From the NCBI GenBank assembly GCA_041690195.1, contig JAWLHT010000092.1:1-16826 (forward strand): a DNA stretch of 16,826 nucleotides, read 5' to 3'. Positions 2,811 to 16,745 of the stretch are shown piece by piece (positions within the stretch are counted from its first letter, which is position 1; each line of letters begins with the position of its first letter). Under the pieces are notes generated by a model, which saw nothing but the letters and a program-made list of their open reading frames with translations, did not search any database and was not told the origin of the DNA. This DNA is from Candidatus Latescibacterota bacterium (GTDB lineage Bacteria > Latescibacterota > Latescibacteria > Latescibacterales > Latescibacteraceae). The translations under genes were made by a program, and so were the position numbers.

Positions 2811-3089
2811 TCCCCAAACCAAACCATAATCCGTTCGGCATTGCGGGAGGATAGTGTGAATTCCACGGAACCGCATCCGGCAGGGGAGACCGTCTGTCCG
2901 ATCCAGCCTCCCATCCCAAGCCACAATCAGCAGAGCAGGGGAATTGACAAATTCACCGGTTCACCGACGCCCCAATTCTTCCGGTATACGGCCCGTCCGC
3001 TGTTCACCCGCCCCGAACGCCGGCACACCCTGTACGGGGAATCGCGCCTGCACGCAGAAATCAGTGTCCGGTCGTCCCGTGGGCCCCGG

Positions 3090-3905
3090 TCAGGCGGTGA
3101 GAACACAGATGGCTTCCGGGACGTTAATCTTGAGGAACAGGCTCTCCGAGACTGAAAAGACATATCCGCTCCCCTCCGGCCCGATGAACCCGGCCGTAAT
3201 GTCCTGGCCGAGCACGATCGAGGCGAACTGGGAGCCCGCGGCCAGGAGTACGCCGCCGGAGCCGATGGTCGCCGACTTGTAAATGCCGCCGGTCACCATG
3301 ACCTGGATGTGCTGAAGTTCGGTCATCATCCCCTGCTGATACCGCCGGAGGAGCCGGTTATACAGTTCCGGGGCCAACGCCAGCGTGTACGGCCCGGGGT
3401 AACCGGCACGGTCAAGTGTCGTTACCGCCTCGATCACGGTTTCAGCAGCGCCCCCCACGGATTCCCAGCCGGAGATCGCCACCGTCTTGCCGCCGGGGAC
3501 ATTCAGAAGACCGTCAACTTTCATGTCGGCGTCACCATTGAAGACGAGGCCGTCTTCCATCCGGGCAACCTCGCGGGCGGCTTCCATTGCGGGACGGATA
3601 TTGAAAGGAACATTCCCGTCTTCAAAGGAGGCGATTTCCCGAACCGGTATCCGGAATTCGGCATGTAGAAACGCGAGCGGCCAGGGAGCGCTTACCGAGA
3701 TGCTCGATCCGGCAGCCTGATTCTCACGCACCGTCCGTTCCTGCATGGGAAGCGTCCGCAGCCCCAAACCATAGGGACCCTCGATGTCCAGCAGTTTACG
3801 ACCGGACAGAATTCCCCGGGCGGCCTCGACCACGGCGCGGTCCAGCACACTCCAAACGTTCTGCTCGAACGGAGCATCGCCTCGATTCAGGTACTTCCCG
3901 CTCAT
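3090..3905 (-). CDS. enc: Family 1 encapsulin nanocompartment shell protein (HK97 fold, linocin M18-like)
   Basis: From my recollection of T. maritima and M. xanthus EncA, the translation shares blocks with them. GRKLLDIEGPYGLG aligns with GRKFVDVEGPYGWEY, EDGLVFNGDADMKVDGLLN with EDEVIFRGCEKSGVKGLLS, GPYTLALAPELYNRL with GPYTLVINTDRWINFL, LGQDITAGFIG with LGQDLSIGYED, and NVPEAICVLTA at the C-terminus with VNPEALILLKF. I prefer the second in-frame ATG (3905) because it has the SD AAAGGGG and gives MSGKYLNRGDAPF..., which aligns with the known N-termini. The ORF-track start at 3926 adds 7 aa and has no SD. The stop is at 3090. Confidence 0.9.
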   Translation of the reverse strand: MSGKYLNRGDAPFEQNVWSVLDRAVVEAARGILSGRKLLDIEGPYGLGLRTLPMQERTVRENQAAGSSISVSAPWPLAFLHAEFRIPVREIASFEDGNVPFNIRPAMEAAREVARMEDGLVFNGDADMKVDGLLNVPGGKTVAISGWESVGGAAETVIEAVTTLDRAGYPGPYTLALAPELYNRLLRRYQQGMMTELQHIQVMVTGGIYKSATIGSGGVLLAAGSQFASIVLGQDITAGFIGPEGSGYVFSVSESLFLKINVPEAICVLTA

Positions 3906-3929
3906 GGGCACCCCTTTCTGGTTCATTGT

Positions 3930-4286
3930 TCATCGCATGCTTCCAACGGTGCTGGGTGTATCGTCCGGGGAACCCACGGCACCGGTTTTCACCGCTTCGG
4001 CAATTTCCTCCACCTCCCGGGCGCCCTTGTCGAGAAGGTCCTGCTCGTCGGAAAGGAGCATGTTCAGGAGCTTTTGGAATTCTCCCACATGCACCCGCTC
4101 CTCGTCGGCTACATCCCGGAGCACCGCCGCGGCAAGCGCGTTGTCGGTGGCGTCGGCGAGCGCCTCATAGAGGTGAACCGCCTCCTCTTCCGCCGAAAGG
4201 CTCAACCTGAGCCCCCTGGTCAGTTCATGGAGAGTGATTTTTCGCCCCGGAACAACTCCGGAGAACGGATTCACGAATTCCGGCAT
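3930..4286 (-). CDS. Encapsulated ferritin-like protein (EncFtn) cargo with a C-terminal targeting peptide ...STVGSMR
   Basis: The ferritin-like four-helix core EEEAVHLYEALADATDNALAAAVLRDVADEERVHVGEFQKLL aligns with the EncFtn pattern EELEAV.WYDQR......DPEL..IL.H.RDEEKEHAAM.LEWL. The C-terminal tail GSPDDTPSTVGSMR matches the Family-1 cargo-loading motif of the (T/G)(V/I)GS(L/M)(K/R) type. The gene ends 3 nt before the encapsulin start codon region (TGA ACA ATG). Start 4286 (MPEFVNPF...) is preferred because of the purine-rich SD GGAAAGGAAAAGG. Alternative starts are 4304 (MGKGKG...) and the ORF-track start 4388. Confidence 0.85.
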   Translation of the reverse strand: MPEFVNPFSGVVPGRKITLHELTRGLRLSLSAEEEAVHLYEALADATDNALAAAVLRDVADEERVHVGEFQKLLNMLLSDEQDLLDKGAREVEEIAEAVKTGAVGSPDDTPSTVGSMR

Positions 4287-4311
4287 ACCTTTTCCTTTCC
4301 CCATACCGGTT

Positions 4312-4327
4312 CCGGAAACAATTCCGG
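4312..4327. promoter_or_regulatory. Perfect 6-4-6 palindrome CCGGAA-acaa-TTCCGG in the EncFtn 5' leader (candidate operator or 5'-UTR hairpin)
   Basis: Exact inverted repeat seen in the sequence, between the candidate -10 and the purine-rich SD of EncFtn. It does not resemble the Fur box; which regulator or RNA function it serves is unknown. Confidence 0.3.
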
Positions 4328-4340
4328 CCGCATATGGTTG

Positions 4341-4349
4341 ATTATGACA
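4341..4349 (-). promoter_or_regulatory. Candidate extended -10 promoter (TGTCATAAT) for the EncFtn-encapsulin transcript; no recognisable -35
   Basis: Minus strand GGGTGTCATAATCAACC: TG-n-CATAAT. It lies 55-60 nt upstream of the EncFtn start, and the palindrome CCGGAA-acaa-TTCCGG (4312-4327) sits between it and the SD. Confidence 0.3.
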
Positions 4350-4463
4350 CCCGCTGCTCCGGGTCGCGCCGAACGCGGCCGGAAACACGCGTCATGATGT
4401 AACCTGCCCGGCCGCATACGACGGGTGCACGGGTACAGCGGTGTCGGCGAGGAATACGACTGA

Positions 4464-7272: not shown

Positions 7273-7317
7273 TCACAAGAATGAACCGGGCCAAGACCCG
7301 GGTTACCCCGGCCCGGC
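7273..7317 (-). terminator. Candidate intrinsic terminator for the MarR gene, overlapping its stop codon
   Basis: Minus-strand RNA GGCCGGGCCGGGGUAACCCGGGUCUUGGCCCGG forms a CCGGGCC/GGCCCGG 7-bp GC stem, extendable by two G-U pairs. It is followed by UUCAUUCUUGUG (7 U of 12). Moderate quality. Confidence 0.3.
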
Positions 7318-7809
7318 CGGTGCAGGCGTATCCACGGGAGGGCGTCCGGGTTCCGGTTCGGGCGGATGCTCGTTCTCAAGCTCAAGCATGGCAGCCACCC
7401 GCTGCAATGTGGACAGGATCAGCGATTGCTCCCACTCGTTCAGCTTCCCATATTCCCGAAAAAACCGTTCCTGAAGGAGCGGAGGAGACTTCCGGATGAT
7501 TTCCAGGCCCGCCTCGGTCACCGATAACGGCGAATGAATCAGATCCTCCGCCTCCGCGCTCCGCCGAACCAGTTCACGCTTTTCCAACCGGTCCAGAATA
7601 TCGTTTACCGCGGGCACGGATATTTCCACCGTGGATGCCAGTTCACCGGCCGAAATTCCCGCATGTCTGCTGATTTCGCGCATCAGGAACAGCTGGGGAC
7701 CGGTCAGATTATGCGCGAGGAAGATGTTTCTCGAGTGTACATCGATGGCATGGGTGATCCGCCGAAGCGCAATGAGAACCAGTTCGTTCCGGGTATGGTC
7801 GGCATTCAT
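7303..7809 (-). CDS. MarR-family transcriptional regulator with a Pro-rich C-terminal tail
   Basis: Winged-helix MarR pattern (LTGPQLFLMREISRHAGISAGELASTVEISVPAVNDILDRLEKRELVRR). The ORF track begins at a TTG (7833). ATG 7809 (MNADHTRNELV...) has the SD AGGAAAAGGAA and lies a suitable distance downstream of the -10 of a near-consensus promoter. The tail ENEHPPEPEPGRPPVDTPAPAGPG is unusual for MarR. Confidence 0.85.
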   Translation of the reverse strand: MNADHTRNELVLIALRRITHAIDVHSRNIFLAHNLTGPQLFLMREISRHAGISAGELASTVEISVPAVNDILDRLEKRELVRRSAEAEDLIHSPLSVTEAGLEIIRKSPPLLQERFFREYGKLNEWEQSLILSTLQRVAAMLELENEHPPEPEPGRPPVDTPAPAGPG

Positions 7810-7831
7810 GGAGCAGTTCCTTTTCCTGTTC

Positions 7832-7861
7832 AATATACGCGCGGCACCACCTCTATGTCAA
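7832..7861 (-). promoter_or_regulatory. Sigma70-type promoter of the MarR gene: -35 TTGACA (7861..7856), 18-nt spacer, -10 TATATT (7837..7832)
   Basis: Read on the minus strand: TTGACA-tagaggtggtgccgcgcg-TATATT. It is followed ~20 nt later by the SD and ATG 7809. It sits in an AT-rich divergent intergenic region. Confidence 0.55.
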
Positions 7862-7942
7862 CACTATAAATATATATCAATACTTATCTATATGCAAAAC
7901 GTATACGCTCCGATCAGCCTCAAAATTCATTTATGATTTCAC

Positions 7943-8034: not shown

Positions 8035-8439
8035 ATGACCGAACATTTCGACCCCAACCGTCCCATCTACCTCCAGGTTATGGAGGAGATCAAGCGCCGC
8101 GCCGTCCGGGGCATCTACCGTCCAGGCGACCTGCTCCCCTCGGTGCGCGACCTGGCCCGGGAAACCGGGGTCAATCCCAACACCATCGCCCGGGTATACC
8201 TCGAACTTGAGCGCGAGGGGTTCATCTCCACCCGGCGAGGCCAGGGGACCTACCTCACCGGGGATGTTTCCCGAATTGACGCGGAGCGCGGCCGTATGGC
8301 GGCCGAGGCGGCCGACCGCTTCATCGCCGAAATCCGCGGTCTAGGGCTCGACGATAGCACCGTCACCGATGTACTCGAACATATGGGGAGCGCGCTCGGC
8401 ACGGCAAAACCCGCGCCCTCAGCCGGGAAGAAGAAATGA
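8035..8439 (+). CDS. GntR-family transcriptional regulator, short YtrA-like subfamily (134 aa)
   Basis: N-terminal GntR wHTH (IYRPGDLLPSVRDLARETGVNPNTIARVYLELEREGFISTRRGQGTYL) followed by a short two-helix C-terminal region typical of YtrA-type regulators. GAGG SD 6 nt upstream of the ATG. Confidence 0.85.
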   Translation: MTEHFDPNRPIYLQVMEEIKRRAVRGIYRPGDLLPSVRDLARETGVNPNTIARVYLELEREGFISTRRGQGTYLTGDVSRIDAERGRMAAEAADRFIAEIRGLGLDDSTVTDVLEHMGSALGTAKPAPSAGKKK

Positions 8440-8548
8440 CATGCTTGGAGAAAAAAGGCACGATACGCGCGATTCGGGGATAACTGAAGGCAGGATTTGA
8501 AGAGAGCTGAAGAATCATTACTTCGGCGGGTTTTCACGCCATAGCTGT

Positions 8549-8692
8549 ACAAGAATTTGTGTGGACCACCACAATCGAATCGTTCCGATTCGACTTGAGG
8601 CCCCGGAGAAGCATAATGAACTCCCGGTGAACTGCCCCTCCTGATCTTTCATCGGCTTTTATCATATGCATCACACGCATCATAATTCAGAC
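8549..8692. repeat. Degenerate second copy of the same MITE-like element (about 70-75% identity by eye, same orientation)
   Basis: GGACCACCACAATCGAATCGTTCCGATTCGACTTGAGGCCCCGG (8563-8606) matches GGACCACCCCAATCGAATCGTACCGATTCGGTTGGGGACCCCGG of the complete copy. The right end CGCATCATAATTCAGAC (8676-8692) matches CGCATCCCAATTCAGAC. The left TIR is eroded (aaGAATTtGtgtGG against ctGAATTgGgatgcgcgGG). Internal segments share ttttcatc.g..ttt.atcat blocks. The stem shows compensatory-looking differences between copies. Confidence 0.45.
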
Positions 8693-8736
8693 AGATTATT
8701 ACCGCTGTCAACAGGGATGGCGCAAACATTACCCCC

Positions 8737-9351
8737 TCACCCCATCCACACCCGGACGGCGTCGAGGAGGAATTTGCCGCTGAAGAAGATGAGGAAGACG
8801 CCGCAGACCGCGAGCACGACCTTCTGGAAGATCGCGCCGAAGACCGCGCCGCCCCGGTGTGAGGCCGCGGAGAGGAAATAGAGCCAGACGAGGTCGCAGC
8901 ACCAGTGAACGAGGGCGAAGAGGAGAAACCCCGCGAGGCCGTAGCCCACCGCGCCGGCAATGAGCGTGGCCCCGACTGTGGCCCACCAGACGAGGAAGTA
9001 GGGATTCCAGAGGCTGAGCAGGACGCCGGTGGCGAGGGGCGTCCCGGCGGAGGCGGAAGCCTCGTAGCGGGCGGTCCGGATGCTCCGGAGCATGCCGAGA
9101 CCCATCCAGAAGAGGAAGGCCCCGCCGAGGGCGAACACCGCCATTTTGACTGGGTCCAGGGCGAGCACCCGTCCCGCGCCGAAAAAGATAGCGGCCATGA
9201 GGGGGAATTCCACCAAACCGTGCCCGACCGCGACCATCACCCCGGCATGGGGCGACCGTCCGCCATGCCCGATGGTGACCGCGGTGATGGGCCCGGGCGA
9301 CATCACCCCGGAAAGGGAGATGAGCACGGTCTGGAGAAGAAAAGACAGCAT
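8737..9351 (-). CDS. LysE/RhtB-family amino-acid/metabolite exporter (six-TM translocator)
   Basis: N-terminal ISLSGVMSPGPITAVTIGHG (the SPGP motif of the LysE/RhtB family) and an overall six-helix hydrophobic profile, 204 aa. No clear SD upstream. The gene is bracketed by two MITE-like repeats (listed below). Confidence 0.85.
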   Translation of the reverse strand: MLSFLLQTVLISLSGVMSPGPITAVTIGHGGRSPHAGVMVAVGHGLVEFPLMAAIFFGAGRVLALDPVKMAVFALGGAFLFWMGLGMLRSIRTARYEASASAGTPLATGVLLSLWNPYFLVWWATVGATLIAGAVGYGLAGFLLFALVHWCCDLVWLYFLSAASHRGGAVFGAIFQKVVLAVCGVFLIFFSGKFLLDAVRVWMG

Positions 9352-9390
9352 TGAGAAGTCTCGCGCAGGGTTGGTTCAGGATGGAATACG

Positions 9391-9539
9391 GTCTGAATTG
9401 GGATGCGCGGGACCACCCCAATCGAATCGTACCGATTCGGTTGGGGACCCCGGGATGCATGGGATAAAAAGATGACGAAAGACAAGGCCTTTTCATCAGT
9501 ATTTCATCATGCCTTTATCGCGCGCATCCCAATTCAGAC
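9391..9539. mobile_element. MITE-like non-autonomous element, 149 bp, with perfect 19-bp terminal inverted repeats and an internal 14-bp-stem hairpin
   Basis: Left end GTCTGAATTGGGATGCGCG (9391-9409) is the exact reverse complement of the right end CGCGCATCCCAATTCAGAC (9521-9539). Inside, CCCCAATCGAATCG-tac-CGATTCGGTTGGGG (9416-9446) pairs 13 of 14. No coding capacity. A related copy lies 800 bp away (8549-8692) and a third partial copy at 16570. Confidence 0.55.
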
Positions 9540-9611: not shown

Positions 9612-11201
9612 TCAGCGCGCGCCGGCGGTGACCATCGGCCAATCGTCAGTGCGGAAGGGCACGGCGGGCAGGCCCTCCCGGTTCATGAGAGTGCAATCGG
9701 GGTCGTCGTCCCAGGCATAGCGTACCGCGACCGGCGCGGGAACGGCGTCGCTCCAGACCACGACCTCAGTTCCTTTGAGTTCCGCTTTGGCCCACACGAA
9801 ATTACGGTTCGCGCCCGCAATGGAGAATCCTGTCAGGGACTTGCCGTCCTTCGCGGCAAGACCGCCGCCGTTGCTGGTGAACTTCAGCCGGATTCTGCCG
9901 CCGGCCGCCTCCATGGAGGCGTATACCGGCCCGGAGTGGACGATGTCGCGGCCATAGACCGTCCGGAGCGCCCCGAGGGCCAGACGGCGGCCCACGTCCT
10001 GCTTGTTCCGGGGATGGATGTCCGCGCCCTCGCCGATGTCAATGGCGCAGGCCATGGCGGTGTTGGGGAGGGAAAGGGTCATGGTCTGGGCTTCGCGGAG
10101 TTCGGCCCAGGCGCATTCCACGGGCTGGTCGTGCCGTTTACCGAAGTTGGCGAGCTGGACGAAGAGGAAGGGGAAGTCGCCCTGCCCCCAGGCCGTTCGC
10201 CAGTCGGCGATCATGGCCGGGAACAGGGTGCGGTACTGCTCGGCGCGCCCGGCATTGGACTCGCCCTGATACCAGATCGCCCCCCGGATGGCGAAGGGAA
10301 CCAGCGGCGCGATCATGGCGTTCCAGGACCAGCCCGGCTCGGAGGGGGCGAAGGAGACCTTCACCGGCTCAACCGGCTGACCGTCGGGAAACGGCAGGAT
10401 GGGCTTCCCGGCATAGAGGACATGGTGGACATCCTCTTCCCATTCGCGGACGCGACGGTGCCAGGCCAACATCTCGGGGGTCTTCGCTCTGATGGCGGGG
10501 GCCCAGTGGTCCAGGATGGGACGGAGCTCCGGATGGGCCCGGAGCGCTTCGGGACGGGTCCAGGCCTCGGCGGTGGTGCCGCCCCAGGAAGCGTGGATGA
10601 GTCCCACCGGGACATCCAGCTCACGACGCAGTTCCCGTCCGAAGAAGTAGGCCGCGGCGGAAAAGAGATAGGCCGTGCTCGGACGGCAGGCTTCCCAGCG
10701 TCCCTCGCAGTCCTTCTGGGGCTCGGCGGCGACCTCGTTGGTGATCTGAAAGAGACGCATGGAGCGGTCGAGCGCCCCGGCGACCTCATTGGCGGCATCC
10801 TTCACATGGCAGAGCCGCATTTCCATGTTGGACTGCCCGGAGCACACCCAGACCTCGCCGACGAGAATATCGTCGAGCCGGAGGGTGTTCTTCCCCCGGA
10901 CCACCATCGCGAACGGGCCTCCGGCGGACATTGGCGCGAGCGTGACCTTCCAGGCACTGTCCGCGCCCGCCGTGGCGGTGACGGTCTGTGCGCCGAACGT
11001 GACGGTCACCTTCTCTCCGGGAGCGGCCCAGCCCCACACCGGAACCGGGATTTCCCGTTGGAGCACCATGCGGGACCCGATCACCGAGGGCAGACGCACA
11101 TCGGCAAATGCCCCGGTCACACCAGACAGTATGGTCACCATAAACAGGACCGCACCGCGAAGCCCATCCATTCTCCGGCAGTTCTTCTCCATTCTTCCCA
11201 T
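9612..11201 (-). CDS. Secreted SGNH-type carbohydrate esterase of the sialate O-acetylesterase (SASA/DUF303) family
   Basis: VWVCSGQSNMEMR, the GQSNM catalytic-serine block that defines SASA-type 9-O-acetylesterases, plus ASWGGTTAEAW and WYQGESN blocks. Signal peptide MDGLRGAVLFMVTILSGVTGAFA|DV. The start is set at ATG 11201 (MGRMEKNCRRMDGL...), downstream of the purine-rich SD region GAGGAAAAGAGAG. ATG 11171 and the ORF-track ATG 11297 are alternatives. Confidence 0.8.
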   Translation of the reverse strand: MGRMEKNCRRMDGLRGAVLFMVTILSGVTGAFADVRLPSVIGSRMVLQREIPVPVWGWAAPGEKVTVTFGAQTVTATAGADSAWKVTLAPMSAGGPFAMVVRGKNTLRLDDILVGEVWVCSGQSNMEMRLCHVKDAANEVAGALDRSMRLFQITNEVAAEPQKDCEGRWEACRPSTAYLFSAAAYFFGRELRRELDVPVGLIHASWGGTTAEAWTRPEALRAHPELRPILDHWAPAIRAKTPEMLAWHRRVREWEEDVHHVLYAGKPILPFPDGQPVEPVKVSFAPSEPGWSWNAMIAPLVPFAIRGAIWYQGESNAGRAEQYRTLFPAMIADWRTAWGQGDFPFLFVQLANFGKRHDQPVECAWAELREAQTMTLSLPNTAMACAIDIGEGADIHPRNKQDVGRRLALGALRTVYGRDIVHSGPVYASMEAAGGRIRLKFTSNGGGLAAKDGKSLTGFSIAGANRNFVWAKAELKGTEVVVWSDAVPAPVAVRYAWDDDPDCTLMNREGLPAVPFRTDDWPMVTAGAR

Positions 11202-11240
11202 CTTTTCTCTCTTTTCCTCTCTCTGTATCATCTCCGCGTC
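11183..11240. repeat. Polypyrimidine (plus strand) / polypurine (minus strand) tract, ~58 nt, with a pure 24-nt CT run at 11201-11224
   Basis: ttcttctccattcttcccatcttttctctcttttcctctctctgtatcatctccgcg. On the coding (minus) strand it forms a GA-rich leader and the extended SD of the esterase gene, in the 58-nt gap after the beta-helix gene. Confidence 0.4.
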
Positions 11241-11259
11241 TCTGCGAGAAACATCTTTT

Positions 11260-13284
11260 CTATTTCCGCTTTCTCGGCCCCACGTCCCGCAGGTCAATCG
11301 GCTTGAACCCCATCGCGAAGGCCGGAGAGCCGGGGCGGAGGGTGAAATCCCCCTTTTCCGGGTTCACGAAACGAGGGTCGGCGATGCGGGAATGGATGTC
11401 CTGACCGCGGGCCCGCCAGTCCGAAAACGTCCAGGAGGCGAAACGGACCGAGTCCGCCGGAAGGCCGGGATTCCAGTAGAGATTGGAGTCGAGACGGTAA
11501 CGGTCGTCGGACCAGTTGCTCCCGAGGAGGGGGCCTTCGATCCAGTATACGATGTTACGCTCGAAAGTGAAGCTCAGGTGCGGCTCCATGCGGGTGCGGA
11601 TGACCTGCCCGATGAGGGAATAGGCGAAGATGTTGTTCCGTACGGTGTTCATGCGCCCGTAATGCTGGTGGAACCCACCGGACTTGGTGCGGTAGACAAG
11701 GTTGTTCTCGATGAGGATATGGCTGGAGCCCTCGTCGGTGTAGATTCCCCAGCCGCCGTAGCCGTGGGAGGTGATGTCATGGAAGAGATTATTGCGGATG
11801 ACCGTCCCCGGCTGCACCCCGAGGTTGTAGTTCCCGCCCATGTCGGAGAGCATGCCGCGCCCGATGTGGTGGACATGATTGTATTCGATGACGTTCTCCC
11901 CGGCGTTGGTGGGGCCGTACCCCCAGGTCCAGCCGTTGGAGATGCCGGTATAGTAGGTGTCGTGAATGTGGTTGTGAGCGATGCGGTTCTTCCCGCTCTG
12001 AAAGATGATGATGCCGCAGGCGGCGGGATAGACCTCGCCGATGTGGTGGATATGGCAATCGGAGACGGTGTTCCCGAATGTCTTGTCCGGATCGTCCCGT
12101 CGCACCCGTGGTTCACCGATCTTGACCCCGCCCGCGCCCATGTCGCTGATCTCGCACCCGACAATCCGGATGTCCCGGCAGCCCCGGGCGAACTCGACGC
12201 CGTACTTGCCGTGATGGCGGATGGCGCAGTCCTCCAGAACGATATCCTCCGCAAAGTCGCCGCGGATCACTCCGGGGATGTCATAGGCGGCCTGGACATC
12301 CACATAGCCGTGCTCCGGGAGCGTCCAGTCGGAGTGTTCGAAGGCGATACCCTGCAGGCTGATGCGGGACACCCGCGAACCGGACCCGGAATCCCCCTCG
12401 AACCGGACCAGTTCATCGAGCACCGGCGCGACGACTTCGGCATTCTCCATATCCTCGCCGGGACGGGGGATATAGGACAGAACGCCGCTTGTCCGGTCCA
12501 GGAAGAACTCCCCGGGAGCATCCAGCGCTTCGGGGACATTTTCCACCCAGTACCGGGCATCCTTTTCCCGGTTGGAGGGAGCGCACTTGTGGGAGAGCAC
12601 CGCGATGGACGAATCGGCCTCCACGCTCCGGATAAGCATGCGGAACTCGGCCCAGGACTGGAGCGCGATTACCTCGACATCGCTCCGGGCGGCCCATTCC
12701 GGCCGGATGTCGTCGTTCCGGTACCTGAGCCTGGCGCGGTCGTCCATGGTAATCGAGCCGTCCGCCTGAAAGAATTCGCCCGCGTTGGGGATGCGGGCCC
12801 GGACCGCGCGTTTCCCGTTCACAAAGAGCTGACGGAAACGCCACTCTCCCGATTTCACTTCGGGGATGGCGACAGTCCAGACGCCGTTCTCACCCTTTGC
12901 GAACCCGGTGACCTTCCTCCCGCCACTGACCACTGGCTTCTCATTCCGGTATGCGCGCCAGGTCACCGGGGTTTTCTCCGTACCGGAGTCCTCCGGGGTG
13001 AACACCACCGGCTTGGATATTTCGTACACCCCGCCGCGCAGGTATACCGTCACCGGGGCGGCTTTCCCCGAGGCGTTCAGTTCCCGGACCGCCCGCTGCG
13101 CCCGTTCGATGGTCCGGAAGGGGCCGTCGGAAGCGGAAACCTCCGCCCGCGTACCGCTCCAGGCGTCATCGCCGGAGGGTGAGATGTAGAACGAGGCGCC
13201 GGCTGCAGTCCCGGCGAAAAATGCCGCACAGATGCCGAGCACCGCGAGCGCCCGGACCGGAATACCCCTGAAAATCCGGTACAT
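11260..13284 (-). CDS. Secreted right-handed parallel beta-helix (pectate-lyase fold) protein. It has a DUF1565-like N-terminus and is a probable polysaccharide hydrolase or lyase.
   Basis: Sec signal peptide MYRIFRGIPVRALAVLGICAAFFAGTAAGA. The N-terminal motif FYISPSGDDAWSGT...PFRTIERAQRA is typical of beta-helix/DUF1565 proteins. There are multiple PbH1-like repeats (HNHIHDTYYTGIS, EYNHVHHIGRG, RNNLFHDITSHGYGGWGIYTDEGSSHILIENNLVYRT, VRNNIFAYS). SD GGAGGA lies 8 nt upstream of ATG 13284. The specific CAZy family is not assignable by eye. Confidence 0.75.
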   Translation of the reverse strand: MYRIFRGIPVRALAVLGICAAFFAGTAAGASFYISPSGDDAWSGTRAEVSASDGPFRTIERAQRAVRELNASGKAAPVTVYLRGGVYEISKPVVFTPEDSGTEKTPVTWRAYRNEKPVVSGGRKVTGFAKGENGVWTVAIPEVKSGEWRFRQLFVNGKRAVRARIPNAGEFFQADGSITMDDRARLRYRNDDIRPEWAARSDVEVIALQSWAEFRMLIRSVEADSSIAVLSHKCAPSNREKDARYWVENVPEALDAPGEFFLDRTSGVLSYIPRPGEDMENAEVVAPVLDELVRFEGDSGSGSRVSRISLQGIAFEHSDWTLPEHGYVDVQAAYDIPGVIRGDFAEDIVLEDCAIRHHGKYGVEFARGCRDIRIVGCEISDMGAGGVKIGEPRVRRDDPDKTFGNTVSDCHIHHIGEVYPAACGIIIFQSGKNRIAHNHIHDTYYTGISNGWTWGYGPTNAGENVIEYNHVHHIGRGMLSDMGGNYNLGVQPGTVIRNNLFHDITSHGYGGWGIYTDEGSSHILIENNLVYRTKSGGFHQHYGRMNTVRNNIFAYSLIGQVIRTRMEPHLSFTFERNIVYWIEGPLLGSNWSDDRYRLDSNLYWNPGLPADSVRFASWTFSDWRARGQDIHSRIADPRFVNPEKGDFTLRPGSPAFAMGFKPIDLRDVGPRKRK

Positions 13285-13461: not shown

Positions 13462-14151
13462 ATGCGGTTTTTTACCTCACACTCCATGCCGTTCCTTTGG
13501 ACGGCATTGCTGATCACGGTTGGAACAGTCCTGTCGCTGGCAGAGCCGCCGTCCCCCGGTTCGGACAGCGTGGTCACGGACTTCCGGGCCAATCTGCGCC
13601 CGCTTCCCGCCGAAGCCTCCGGGCCGGTGCGATTCGTTTCGGAAGAAATTGACCTGCGCGTCACCGGGGGCCGGGTTACAGTCACCGGGCGCTATCATCT
13701 CCATTCCGACCTCCCCGAAACCCGCGCCATCCCTCTCGCCTACCCCTTTCCAGTGAATGCCGGGGCCGATTTCCCCGACACCATCCGGGTGTACCAGGGG
13801 AAAGGCCGCATCCCGGTTCCCTTCGAGGAAGACCGGAACGGAGCCGCCGTATTCTTCCGCATCGAGGCCGGACGCAATTTCGAGTTCACCGCCGTCTATT
13901 CCCAAAAGCTCGGGGCGGGCGAGGCCACCTACATCCTGACCACCACCAAAGCCTGGGGCGCGCCGCTCCGGAGCGCACGGTTCACGGTCACCCTGCCGGA
14001 CAGCCTGGTCCCGGTGTTCTGGTCATACCCCCCGGACCGCACCGAGCGGAAAGCGGAGGGAGTCACCATGTATTCCATCCACCGGACGGATTTCCTCCCG
14101 GACCGCGATCTCACCCTCCGCTGGAAACCCCGGAAAGCGAGGACACCATGA
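13462..14151 (+). CDS. Hypothetical exported protein (230 aa, Sec signal peptide), translationally coupled to the downstream T9SS cargo gene
   Basis: ATG 13462 is preceded by GGGGAA with a 7-nt spacer. The ORF track begins at an upstream TTG (13444). Signal peptide MRFFTSHSMPFLWTALLITVGTVLSLA|EPP. The stop TGA overlaps the next ATG (ATGA at 14148-14151). A strong sigma70 promoter lies 30-65 nt upstream. I recognise no family. Confidence 0.6.
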   Translation: MRFFTSHSMPFLWTALLITVGTVLSLAEPPSPGSDSVVTDFRANLRPLPAEASGPVRFVSEEIDLRVTGGRVTVTGRYHLHSDLPETRAIPLAYPFPVNAGADFPDTIRVYQGKGRIPVPFEEDRNGAAVFFRIEAGRNFEFTAVYSQKLGAGEATYILTTTKAWGAPLRSARFTVTLPDSLVPVFWSYPPDRTERKAEGVTMYSIHRTDFLPDRDLTLRWKPRKARTP

Positions 14152-16484
14152 AGAACGGTATAAGGGCGATGCTGTTCGTTTTCTGGACGATGGCGCTCGC
14201 TCCAACCGGGACATCCGCCAATCCAGTCATGCCAGGGGGCATCACGGAGTTCTCCGTGGACCCGGACTGGATCGAGGTGAACACCAATCCCTGGCCATTC
14301 GGCGTCAACAGACCGATCATCATTGACGGGAAAGAGGTCGCCATAGACTGGGATGCAGTTGCGGCGAACGAAAACTTCGGGAGACAGGTCGTCTTCGACA
14401 GCACGAACACATCCGGATTCGACCTGAAGCCGGAGGGCGGGTATATCTATATTTCCGTCCTGTCGGACACCCTGTTTTATGGTCCGGGGCAGATGTGCCC
14501 GTCTCCATTGCCCGGGGAGAGCATTTCCCTCAACGGCGAATGGCAGTACCGGGGTTCCCGGTATCCCTGGAATTTCGATCCGACGCCCACACCACGCGAA
14601 CCGAACGACGCCCCGGACCCGAAATATGGAAGCGGAACGGTTTTCATCAACGAGGTCTTCCCCGGCAGTGAGGGCCAACCGGCTTTCATCGAACTGTACA
14701 ACCGTGGAGATTCCCCGGCGGATATCGGCGGGTACTCGCTGATCACGCTCGCCCGGTATCGCGTTCCCGGTGGTACGGTCATCCCGGCCCGCGGGTTTTT
14801 CACCCTTTCCGCGCCGGAATTCCCCGTCGGGTTCGCACTATCCCCGGAGGGCGGGACGGTATACATCCAGAATGACCGGTACGAACTGGTGGACCAGATG
14901 GGCTGGCCGGGCGGGATGGAAGCCGGAATCTCGGTGAACCGCGTTCCCGATGGCCTCGCGACCGAGTTCCGGGGGTATGATTACGCCACATCCCTCGATT
15001 TCCGGGAGGGGAATGCCTCGCCGGACGCGACGAATTCGGGATTCCCCATTCTCTCCATGTCCATGGAGAAAACGAACGACCTGCTCTGCCCGGGAGCGCG
15101 GAAACAGTACTGCTGCCGGGGAACGGACAGCCGGGGCCGCACCGCGCGGATGCTCCCGGAGTGGAGCATCCGCGGAGGCTTCGCCGAGGTGGACGGGTAC
15201 GGCGTGGTCACCGGCATCCGGTGCGGAGAGGGCGTCCTCACCGCTCAATATGAAGCGTTTACCGACACTCTGTTCATCCGGGGTGCGGCGGGGGGAAGTC
15301 TGTTGAATGACGCGGTGTGGAAAAACGAATATAATCCATATCGAGTGGAAAGTCAGTTCTGGATTGGGAATGGAGTAACGTTACGGATAGAGCCTGGAGT
15401 GGTAATCGATTTTTATGGAGACAGCCCGGTTTACGTATCGGGAACATTGCTCTGTATGGGTAATGCGGAACAGCCAATTTCCTTTTCCGCCCAACCGCCA
15501 CGAGATCCCGACCGAAGCAGCGGTATTAACTTTTATGGTGGATCAAGCATTCTCAAGTATTGTATGTTCGACCGGACTGAGACACAGATAAACATAACCG
15601 AGTACGCGGATTCCACGAAAGTTTCCCATTGCGTTTTTCGTGGCGGAAAGAACTCGATATTGATATCCGGAGAGGCGATAATAGAACACAATTTGTTGGT
15701 CGGTTCTTTTGCAGAACAGGAGCCGGGGATACGAATCAGCCGGATGGCACGGGAAGGAACATGGGAATGGCCGGGAACCGCACGCGTGGTCAACAACACG
15801 CTCATCGACTGGAACAAGGGAATCACCATTGACCGCGCCTCCGAAACGGTCATCCGCAACAACATTATCTCCAACTGCACCACCGGCATCGACGGTTCCG
15901 CCGATATCGCCCACAACTGCATCGCCGCCTCCAATCCCTTCGTCAATGGTCCGGAGGGCGCGGGCGTCCTCTCCGGGGTCAACGCCCGGGGGACCGCCTG
16001 CGATGCGTTCCGGAACATCTTCGTGAATCCCGGATTCACGGACGCCGCCGGGGGCGATTACCGTCTGGCTGCAAACTCTCCCTGTATCGACGCCGGAGAC
16101 CCCTCCATTCTGGATGAAGACGGCAGCGTTTCCGACCTGGGCATGTATGGCGGCGGGGGTGACATCGTGCCGGTGGTGGAAGAGCGGGAGGACGACGCGC
16201 TGCCACGGACGCTCCGGGTGGAACGGAATTATCCCAATCCCTTCAATCCCTCAACGACCATCGGGTTCACCCTGCCGGAGGAAGGCCGGGCCAGCCTGAC
16301 CGTATATGCCATCACCGGCGGGAAAGTCCGCGAACTGGTCTCCGGCGCGCTCCCGGCGGGGAAACACGAGGCGCGGTGGGACGGCCGCGACGACCGGGGG
16401 CATGCCGTTTCCTCCGGCGTCTACCTCGTCCGGCTCACGCAGAAAGGTCGGGTTTCCACCGCCAAGATGCTGCTGATAAAGTAA
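14148..16484 (+). CDS. Large secreted protein with a lamin-tail domain (LTD), parallel beta-helix repeats and a C-terminal T9SS (Por) sorting domain
   Basis: Signal peptide MKNGIRAMLFVFWTMALAPTGTSA|NP. LTD signature GTVFINEVFPGSEGQPAFIELYNRGDSPADIGGYSL...GFFTL...VDQMGW. Beta-helix repeats (NNTLIDWNKGITIDRASETVIRNNIISNCTTGIDGSADIAHNCI). C-terminal ~80 aa (RNYPNPFNPSTTIGFTLPEEGRASLTVYAITGGKVRELV...GVYLVRLTQKGRVSTAKMLLIK) match the T9SS type A C-terminal sorting domain. SD GAGGA 5 nt upstream. Confidence 0.8.
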   Translation: MKNGIRAMLFVFWTMALAPTGTSANPVMPGGITEFSVDPDWIEVNTNPWPFGVNRPIIIDGKEVAIDWDAVAANENFGRQVVFDSTNTSGFDLKPEGGYIYISVLSDTLFYGPGQMCPSPLPGESISLNGEWQYRGSRYPWNFDPTPTPREPNDAPDPKYGSGTVFINEVFPGSEGQPAFIELYNRGDSPADIGGYSLITLARYRVPGGTVIPARGFFTLSAPEFPVGFALSPEGGTVYIQNDRYELVDQMGWPGGMEAGISVNRVPDGLATEFRGYDYATSLDFREGNASPDATNSGFPILSMSMEKTNDLLCPGARKQYCCRGTDSRGRTARMLPEWSIRGGFAEVDGYGVVTGIRCGEGVLTAQYEAFTDTLFIRGAAGGSLLNDAVWKNEYNPYRVESQFWIGNGVTLRIEPGVVIDFYGDSPVYVSGTLLCMGNAEQPISFSAQPPRDPDRSSGINFYGGSSILKYCMFDRTETQINITEYADSTKVSHCVFRGGKNSILISGEAIIEHNLLVGSFAEQEPGIRISRMAREGTWEWPGTARVVNNTLIDWNKGITIDRASETVIRNNIISNCTTGIDGSADIAHNCIAASNPFVNGPEGAGVLSGVNARGTACDAFRNIFVNPGFTDAAGGDYRLAANSPCIDAGDPSILDEDGSVSDLGMYGGGGDIVPVVEEREDDALPRTLRVERNYPNPFNPSTTIGFTLPEEGRASLTVYAITGGKVRELVSGALPAGKHEARWDGRDDRGHAVSSGVYLVRLTQKGRVSTAKMLLIK

Positions 16485-16569: not shown

Positions 16570-16690
16570 GTCTGAATTGGGATGCCGCTGATGCCTAAGC
16601 AACACCAAGCAGTGCGCGAGCGCTTCCCTGAAATCATCGGAATTCGGCCGCCGCAAACTGCACTCACACAGTCGCATCCAGTCGGCGGCA
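16570..16690. repeat. Third, diverged copy or remnant of the MITE-like element (left TIR conserved 16 of 16)
   Basis: GTCTGAATTGGGATGC at 16570-16585 is identical to the first 16 nt of the 19-bp TIR. Downstream, AATCATCGGAATTCGGCCG weakly resembles the hairpin region. GTCGCATCCAGTC (16671-16683) weakly resembles the right TIR (CGCATCC..TCAGAC). The boundaries are uncertain. Confidence 0.3.
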
Positions 16691-16700
16691 CCATACAGGG

Positions 16701-16745
16701 CAAGGGCTTACGGAAACATGACCGTAAGCCCTTGTTGTTTTATCT
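16701..16745 (+). terminator. Rho-independent terminator with a perfect 12-bp stem CAAGGGCTTACG / CGTAAGCCCTTG, a 10-nt loop and a TTGTTTTAT tail
   Basis: Seen directly in the sequence. The stem is GC-rich and is followed by a U-run on the plus strand only. It lies 215 nt downstream of the T9SS-cargo gene stop, beyond the MITE-like remnant, so it terminates plus-strand transcription. Confidence 0.75.

Follow-up and report, generated by a model that had tools for sequence, protein, structure and literature searches.

The 16,826-nt contig JAWLHT010000092.1 of a Candidatus Latescibacterota bacterium raises the question of what the repeats with inverted ends are that lie on both sides of its LysE exporter gene. 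The whole contig is the window analyzed here, and copy counts for the source genome refer to these 16.8 kb. It holds one copy past the LysE stop codon (A), one upstream of the LysE start codon (B), and one farther away (C); related copies were found in a 2.4-kb contig of the Logan assembly of SRR26038645 (L112) and in a JGI contig (L114). The reading we favor, with a probability of about 0.55, is that these elements are a small family of nonautonomous DNA transposons bounded by terminal inverted repeats (TIRs), similar to MITEs (miniature transposable elements with inverted repeats) and mobilized in trans. The structure of the family, its TIRs, its noncoding nature and its dispersal, together with the lack of B in the nearest relative and a decay series among the copies, favor a nonautonomous TIR element, and the family occurs both in this Latescibacterota-like lineage and among its relatives. 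Movement would need a TIR-recognizing transposase supplied in trans; we infer both transposition itself and the kind of transposase.

Copy B is placed between the stop codon of a SASA-type esterase gene (9612) and the start codon of LysE (9351), 40 nt upstream of the latter. Its ends, GTCTGAATTGGGATGCGCG and CGCGCATCCCAATTCAGAC, are inverted copies of one another at 19 of 19 positions, as a first-pass annotation of this DNA had reported from the letters alone, and the match extends to 22 nt at 95%. With up to three mismatches allowed, the TIR 19-mer occurs four times in the window, compared with 0.01 expected from shuffles. The internal 14-bp hairpin described in the same annotation is also real: the stem-loop CCCCAATCGAATCG-tac-CGATTCGGTTGGGG is made up of 13 Watson-Crick pairs and one T.G pair, with a DNA folding energy (dG) of -14.2. 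The GC content of the module that carries this hairpin is 0.636, that of the remainder of B is 0.457, and that of the contig is 0.60. The whole element folds strongly on both strands, the plus strand with -78.5 kcal/mol (z = -10, RNA parameters) and the minus strand with -74.9 (z = -8). An open reading frame (ORF) running through B has no protein family match, and L112 does not preserve its frame. A, B, and C are all situated between genes, and the earlier description of the copies as intergenic and noncoding stands.

Copy A is detected by nhmmer on the minus strand with an E-value of 5e-25. The first-pass annotation had placed a degenerate copy at 8549-8692, and a second copy is indeed present, at 8544-8692, but it is not collinear with B: its core is inverted and its left TIR is unrecognizable. 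Two blocks of A and B correspond at a common offset of 847 nt, the hairpin part (8563-8606) at 84% and the right end (8670-8694) at 84%. The TIR-bearing remnant noted at position 16570 is confirmed as copy C, whose TIR (16570-16588) matches at 16 of 19 positions, with 16 nt exact. Like A, it has one recognizable end. Copy C may be a degenerate, full module-less copy extending to about 16687, as a global alignment with the module-less copies would suggest (z about 4-5, in part from the TIR itself); it has no significant fold. For the gene adjoining C, whose orthologue was sought, the nearest relative is only 54% identical.

An ORF that is open from 16582 to the contig end was considered as the N terminus of a transposase and rejected; it has no Pfam or NCBIfam match, contains a strong terminator, and is probably spurious. 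That terminator-like structure, a strong hairpin of 15 pairs followed by a T-run at 16699-16736, lies just past copy C and about 215 nt past the stop (16484) of the gene at 14148-16484.

Judged from the alignments, the repeat unit is a composite. It consists of an AT-rich, near-palindromic, TIR-bounded backbone of about 105-115 nt, here called E, and an optional 44-nt GC-rich hairpin module. The TIRs of E are 17-19 nt long, with the approximate consensus, drawn by eye, GTCYGAATKGGGATGCG; the ends of the L114 copy are far more diverged. The module, in which a 31-nt GC-rich imperfect palindrome is embedded, is present in A and B only. In both it sits exactly 19 nt inside an outer end and is oriented alike with respect to that end, and it occupies opposite ends of the core in the two copies. 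This equal placement at opposite core ends means that the core of A, 67 nt long, is inverted relative to the core of B. Pairwise global alignments give the same orientations. The L112 core is identical to the plus-strand core of B at 56 of 62 positions with a score of 79 (36 in the opposite orientation), and to the minus-strand core of A at 52 of 64 with a score of 76 (32 for the plus strand of A). Between the minus-strand core of A and the plus-strand core of B, 45 of 62 positions are identical and the score is 55, compared with 26.5 when both are read on the plus strand.

The stems of A and B differ in that one C-G pair of B is an A.A mismatch in A, the T.G pair is T-A, and a one-base bulge is added, which changes the dG from -14.2 to -9.5. 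With only two hairpin sequences and a net weakening between them, there is no evidence of compensatory change, contrary to what had been proposed from the letters. Nor does the proposal that the hairpin is under selection agree with its absence from the L112 copy, the L114 copy, and C and with differences that weaken the pairing; the hairpin is an optional add-on and not a selected core feature.

How the module came to lie at mirror-image positions is a small puzzle about module gain or exchange in palindromic elements. Two copies could each have received it next to the TIR by an independent insertion, specific for site and orientation, or it could have been passed between the symmetric arms, or between copies, when recombination or repair used the palindrome as a template. 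The core ends resemble one another in reverse complement (GATGC..G.GATAAA), so that pairing would be possible in either orientation. A more doubtful idea is that the 44-nt hairpin is a minute mobile element in its own right, which would parasitize another parasite and insert at the inner TIR edge, 19 nt from the end and reading inward. It would then have struck two copies at mirror-image ends, and a single-strand (HUH-type) mechanism would explain both its fixed orientation and the missing target-site duplications.

The 90% cluster of the window LysE protein contains one other member, which is the one encoded in L112. This contig is collinear with window positions 9351-8610 at 89%; the 3' end of its SASA gene is 85% identical to that of the window, LysE together with the next 127 nt 89%, and MarR 73.5%. 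The L112 element, of about 114 nt (1347-1460), begins 45 nt past the LysE stop and reads GTCCGAATGGGGATGCGTG ... CATGCGCATTCTCATTCAGAT. It has both TIRs and no GC-rich hairpin, and its TIRs, with 13 of 19 Watson-Crick matches by hand count, form a closing stem.

An nhmmer profile was built from module-less L112, A, and B and run against 0.84 Mb of fetched DNA, in which about 100 unrelated loci served as a negative control. The profile, built without L114, found a module-less copy at L114 2421-2521 (E = 1.3e-3 in 0.84 Mb). The LysE of L114 is 70% identical to that of the window, its other neighbors are different (MFS, Rnf), and the element lies about 20 nt past the LysE stop. No copy was detected by the profile in L110, L113, L115/L116, L117/L118, L119, or L121. 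The L110 locus has a LysE of 74% identity and the same GH141-SASA-LysE order as the window, with a SASA-LysE spacer of 70 nt and no element, and L115 keeps the SASA-LysE adjacency without it. In L121, whose LysE is 85% identical to that of L114, the L114 element is missing, but the entire downstream flank differs as well. The absence of the element at five further LysE loci (L110, L113, L115/L116, L117/L118, and L119) indicates that the LysE unit does not have to include it. In all, the element is dispersed over three or more independent sites and two or more lineages, and the family is not a private duplication of this contig. A local tandem duplication, the outcome by which the first-pass annotation would have withdrawn its proposal, does not agree with an orthologue of A in L112 without B or with a further copy among different neighbors in L114.

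The copies differ in age. Copy B is a recent one, as shown by its perfect TIRs, its perfect long hairpin, and the lack of B at the corresponding site of L112. Copy A is old, predates the split from the L112 lineage, and is decaying, and C and the L114 copy are decayed too. The folds form a corresponding series: B has a z-score of -10 with RNA parameters, whereas, folded as single-stranded DNA, the L112 copy has -2.3, A is weakly better than shuffles at -1.95, and C and the L114 copy are no better than shuffles. Among these four DNA folds, the long closing stem is kept by the L112 copy only. Because stability drops with age across the copies, the series points to a young copy among decaying ones and not to a structure held by selection.

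Several observations weigh against a mobile TIR family. No direct repeat of at least 3 nt is found at the boundaries of B, with shifts of up to 4 nt allowed, and the flanks of the other copies show no consistent target-site duplication, so that the duplications looked for at the suggestion of the first-pass annotation did not appear. Five copies are known in total, of which A and the L112 copy represent one orthologous insertion, and the element closely follows a LysE gene at two of the independent sites, which makes linkage rather than random dispersal possible. B is absent at the orthologous site of L112 as a replacement and not as a clean empty site. In the JGI metagenomes, searched by exact matching only, a pattern of hairpin core plus right end gave 0 matches, and the 19-mer TIR gave one match, in coding DNA, that was judged to be chance. 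An autonomous element with matching TIRs was found neither in the contig, nor in plasmids, nor in the exact-match JGI scan. The insertion sequence (IS) or RAYT transposase that had been proposed as the source of mobility is likewise absent from the contig, where no ORF contains a transposase domain and no Y1_Tnp/RAYT gene is present.

The position of the copies beside LysE could instead reflect function. The element would then act in cis on the LysE unit, for example as a 3'-untranslated region or terminator structure, as an operator, or as a small RNA, and would have been inherited together with LysE; B would have arisen locally as a secondary copy and not by transposition. Such a role is suggested by the element lying 20-45 nt past the LysE stop in three loci of two lineages (the window with the orthologous L112, and L114), by the 40-nt distance of B from the LysE start, and by the minus strand of B, on which an AT-rich hairpin is followed by TTTTTAT; in L115, inverted copies of another repeat likewise enclose LysE. 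We consider it unlikely all the same. L113, L117/L118, L119, and L121 lack the element downstream of LysE, and it is undetected in L110 and L115; C adjoins an unrelated gene, A and B are oriented differently with respect to LysE, and the fold is not kept in A, C, and the L114 copy. A consensus scan shows no intrinsic terminator within A or B, the nearest being at 8470-8458 (minus) and 16699-16736 (plus), and Rfam gives no match at an E-value of up to 1 anywhere in the window. That the elements belong to no mobile family at all and are instead scars left at the junctions of local duplications, inversions, and deletions in a recombination-prone spacer around LysE is distinctly improbable. Homology does break at or beside the elements (with L112 to 8610 and with L120 to 8446), the window has no counterpart of a GntR-linked ABC gene, the B site is replaced rather than simply inserted into relative to L112, and the cores of A and B run in opposite directions. 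Yet C bears the same 16-nt terminus 7 kb away beside an unrelated gene, the L114 copy has a different genomic context, and a scar would not yield ends that are perfect 19-nt inverted copies.

The first-pass annotation had left open whether the unit is a MITE or a repetitive extragenic palindromic (REP)-like element. The features of a MITE fit (size, TIRs, AT-richness, intergenic position, and the fold of the young copy), but the second half of the proposal found no support. In that case the GC-rich hairpin would be a REP unit and the element, of the REP or REPIN type, would be spread by a RAYT (Y1 HUH) transposase. The module palindrome, 31 nt in a 44-nt unit, is within the REP size range, its position and orientation are fixed relative to the adjacent TIR, and the missing target-site duplications fit single-strand HUH transposition better than DDE transposition. 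Nevertheless, we regard this origin as highly improbable. Both module copies lie inside E and none is free in the 16.8 kb or in the related loci, the module never forms an inverted doublet and lacks a GTAG-like head, and the contig contains no Y1_Tnp or RAYT gene. The backbones of L112 and L114 exist without the module, and the hairpin-plus-end pattern has 0 matches in the JGI metagenomes (exact matching only).

Other identities were rejected. A composite transposon made of A, LysE, and B was discarded, as A has a degenerate outer end and the synteny of SASA and LysE occurs with one copy in L112 and with none in L110. The synteny with a single copy in L112 implies that LysE was not delivered by the A/B pair. 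An integron attC site or gene cassette was rejected as well, since the ends, GTCTGAA and TTCAGAC, are not the R'' RYYYAAC ... R' GTTRRRY core sites; the conserved element-free gene order (GH141-SASA-LysE in L110 and SASA-LysE in L115) also counters it.

The history of the two sites around LysE can be followed in the relatives. The SASA-LysE spacers of L112 and the window have the first approximately 57 nt and the last approximately 10-25 nt in common. Between these ends there are 196 nt including B in the window and 130 unrelated nt in L112. The homology between the window and L112 stops at 8610, at the junction of core and module of A. In L120, whose GntR is 86% identical, the MarR promoter and GntR are followed by an ABC ATPase gene overlapping the GntR stop, as in a ytrA-like operon. 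Homology of the window with L120 ends at 8446, 7 nt past the GntR stop (window 8440-8606 compared with L120 660-941). The ABC gene in L120 and this end of homology indicate that the ABC gene was lost from the window, and the deletion junction (8447-8606) abuts A. L112 is without GntR. Strain-to-strain homology breakpoints thus lie at or beside A and B, which is expected for dispersed repeats and is uninformative on mechanism.

In the SASA-LysE spacer of L112, where the window has B, there is a perfect 15-bp GC-rich hairpin at 582-614, TGCCCCCTCTCCAGC tcc GCTGGAGAGGGGGCA, which may represent a further family of palindromic repeats or a terminator. Window 7340-7882 and L112 1720-2257, which contain MarR, are 73.5% identical at the nucleotide level, whereas SASA and LysE are 85-89% identical. 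By this comparison, the gap suggests a recombination boundary near A.

The spacers around this LysE gene seem to gather palindromic repeats. In L110, a strong 120-nt palindrome (3187-3311; DNA fold z = -7) follows the LysE stop directly, between convergent genes. It has an 11-mer, CTGAATTATGA, in common with the TIR of A, but it was rejected as a member of the family because neither profile detects it. In L115 (LysE 69% identical), another repeat (GCTTCGACAGGCTCAGC...) flanks LysE in inverted copies at 1998-2047 and 3061-3144, which are 92-96% complementary, with short tandem units downstream; a stretch upstream of SASA (3-166) recurs upstream of LysE (1890-2157). Directly upstream of LysE in L110 (2520-2565) and L117 (395-425) there is a conserved CTTTTCAC/CTTTCAC repeat motif, possibly the binding site of a regulator. 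The window lacks it and has B on the upstream side of LysE instead. Downstream of LysE in L121, an IS5-like DDE_Tnp_1 transposase fragment is found on the minus strand (2280-2801), with an IS5-type end, GAAGGTGCTGAACG, at about 2305-2320 that is unrelated to the TIR of A, B, and C.

Correia-type elements are 100-160 nt long, have TIRs of about 19-26 nt, lie near gene starts or stops, and occur as copies ranging from perfect to decayed. The Correia elements of Neisseria (CREE/NEMIS) and QMITE2 of Coxiella resemble the elements described here in size, TIR length, and whole-element hairpin (PMC10969869, PMC5896051). They show no sequence similarity to E, as far as covered by a plasmid BLAST, which was negative. 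E also differs from them in lacking a TA or other target duplication, in its optional GC-rich hairpin module, and in its uncultured Latescibacterota-like host. The ERIC sequences, or IRU, of enterobacteria are imperfect palindromes of about 127 bp, and their longer variants carry insertions at fixed internal sites. To our knowledge, they are vertically conserved in enterobacteria, and no TIR-dependent transposition has been demonstrated for them. They are similar to the present family as near-palindromic intergenic units with short and long forms that differ by an insertion into a fixed place inside the unit; in E, by contrast, the insert is itself a strong hairpin and lies at mirror-image positions in two copies.

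Prokaryotic MITEs in general are under 500 bp, with TIRs of 4-30 bp, and are AT-rich, intergenic, and able to form stable stem-loops (PMC10969869). The elements of 105-149 nt resemble them in being noncoding, in their TIRs, their AT-rich backbone (0.46 GC), and their intergenic position, and in the stable fold of B. With the REP/REPIN-RAYT system (PMC3116915) they have in common a short GC-rich hairpin-forming palindrome and the lack of target duplication. That system differs in its doublets, its high copy number, and its RAYT gene, none of which was found in the sequence examined, and a TIR-bounded AT-rich backbone is unlike a REP. MITE-flanked composite units are represented in a passage of PMC10969869 by integrons between identical MITEs in Acinetobacter. 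The likeness is that LysE lies between two copies with inverted cores; the differences are the degenerate outer end of A and the same synteny with one copy in L112.

The current understanding of MITEs is unchanged by these elements. A profile of the TIR element would nevertheless explain contig breaks in Latescibacterota-like metagenome-assembled genomes (MAGs), mark rearrangement hotspots, and flag possible polar or promoter effects on neighboring genes, such as LysE at 40 nt from B.

A scan of the GTDB genome collection with the 16-mer TIR returned at least 99 single matches; among the matches listed, all judged to be chance, none extends beyond the 16-mer and none is from a Latescibacterota-like genome. 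The same 16-mer had 10 matches in viral contigs, all by chance and with no likeness outside it, and a plasmid BLAST of B gave no match. When B was translated and compared with 1.8 billion proteins to find spurious ORFs covering other copies, only tandem-repeat proteins were matched, via a short RFGWGP motif, and these were set aside as irrelevant. Two of the library proteins, P0125 and P0126, are an approximately 159-nt (53-amino acid) tandem repeat translated in shifting frames, and they matched the translated hairpin only via the short RFGWGP/GTT motif. A full-text literature search returned no paper naming Latescibacter* together with MITEs, and no description of Latescibacterota repeat families was found.

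The positions of the copies, their parts, and the neighboring genes are given in Table 1.

Table 1. Repeat copies, their parts, and genes of the window (positions are those of the 16,826-nt contig)
Feature	Position	Strand	Remarks
Copy B	9391-9539		149 nt; TIR, hairpin module, core, TIR; complete, young element
B left TIR	9391-9409	+	GTCTGAATTGGGATGCGCG
B hairpin module	9410-9453	+	44 nt, 64% GC; 14-bp stem, 3-nt loop; dG -14.2
B core	9454-9520	+	AT-rich, near-palindromic; orientation as in L112 element
B right TIR	9521-9539	-	CGCGCATCCCAATTCAGAC
Copy A	8544-8692		old decayed element downstream of LysE stop (8737); orthologous to L112 1347-1460
A outer 19 nt (TIR position)	8544-8562	+	unrecognizable; in register, 4/19 positions as in B; no match at up to 3 mismatches
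A hairpin module	8563-8606	+	stem weakened; 84% identical to that of B; dG -9.5
A core	8607-8673	-	inverted compared with B core, from core alignments
A inner-side TIR	8674-8692	-	GTCTGAATTATGATGCGTG; 16/19
Copy C	16570-16598	+	TIR followed by about 11 nt of backbone; aligned by nhmmer to model positions 1-29 (E = 0.01 in the window)
MarR gene	7303-7833	-
Short GntR gene	8035-8439	+
LysE exporter gene	8737-9351	-
SASA-type esterase gene	9612-11297	-
GH141-like beta-helix protein gene	11260-13284	-
Secreted beta-helix protein gene	14148-16484	+

The closest named relatives of the window LysE and GntR proteins are from Candidatus Latescibacterota MAGs. No tRNAs are present in the window. At 3090-4388, the window contains a gene for an encapsulin shell protein (Linocin_M18, E = 9e-66), with a rubrerythrin-like gene directly upstream on the same strand, and the two probably form an encapsulin-cargo pair.

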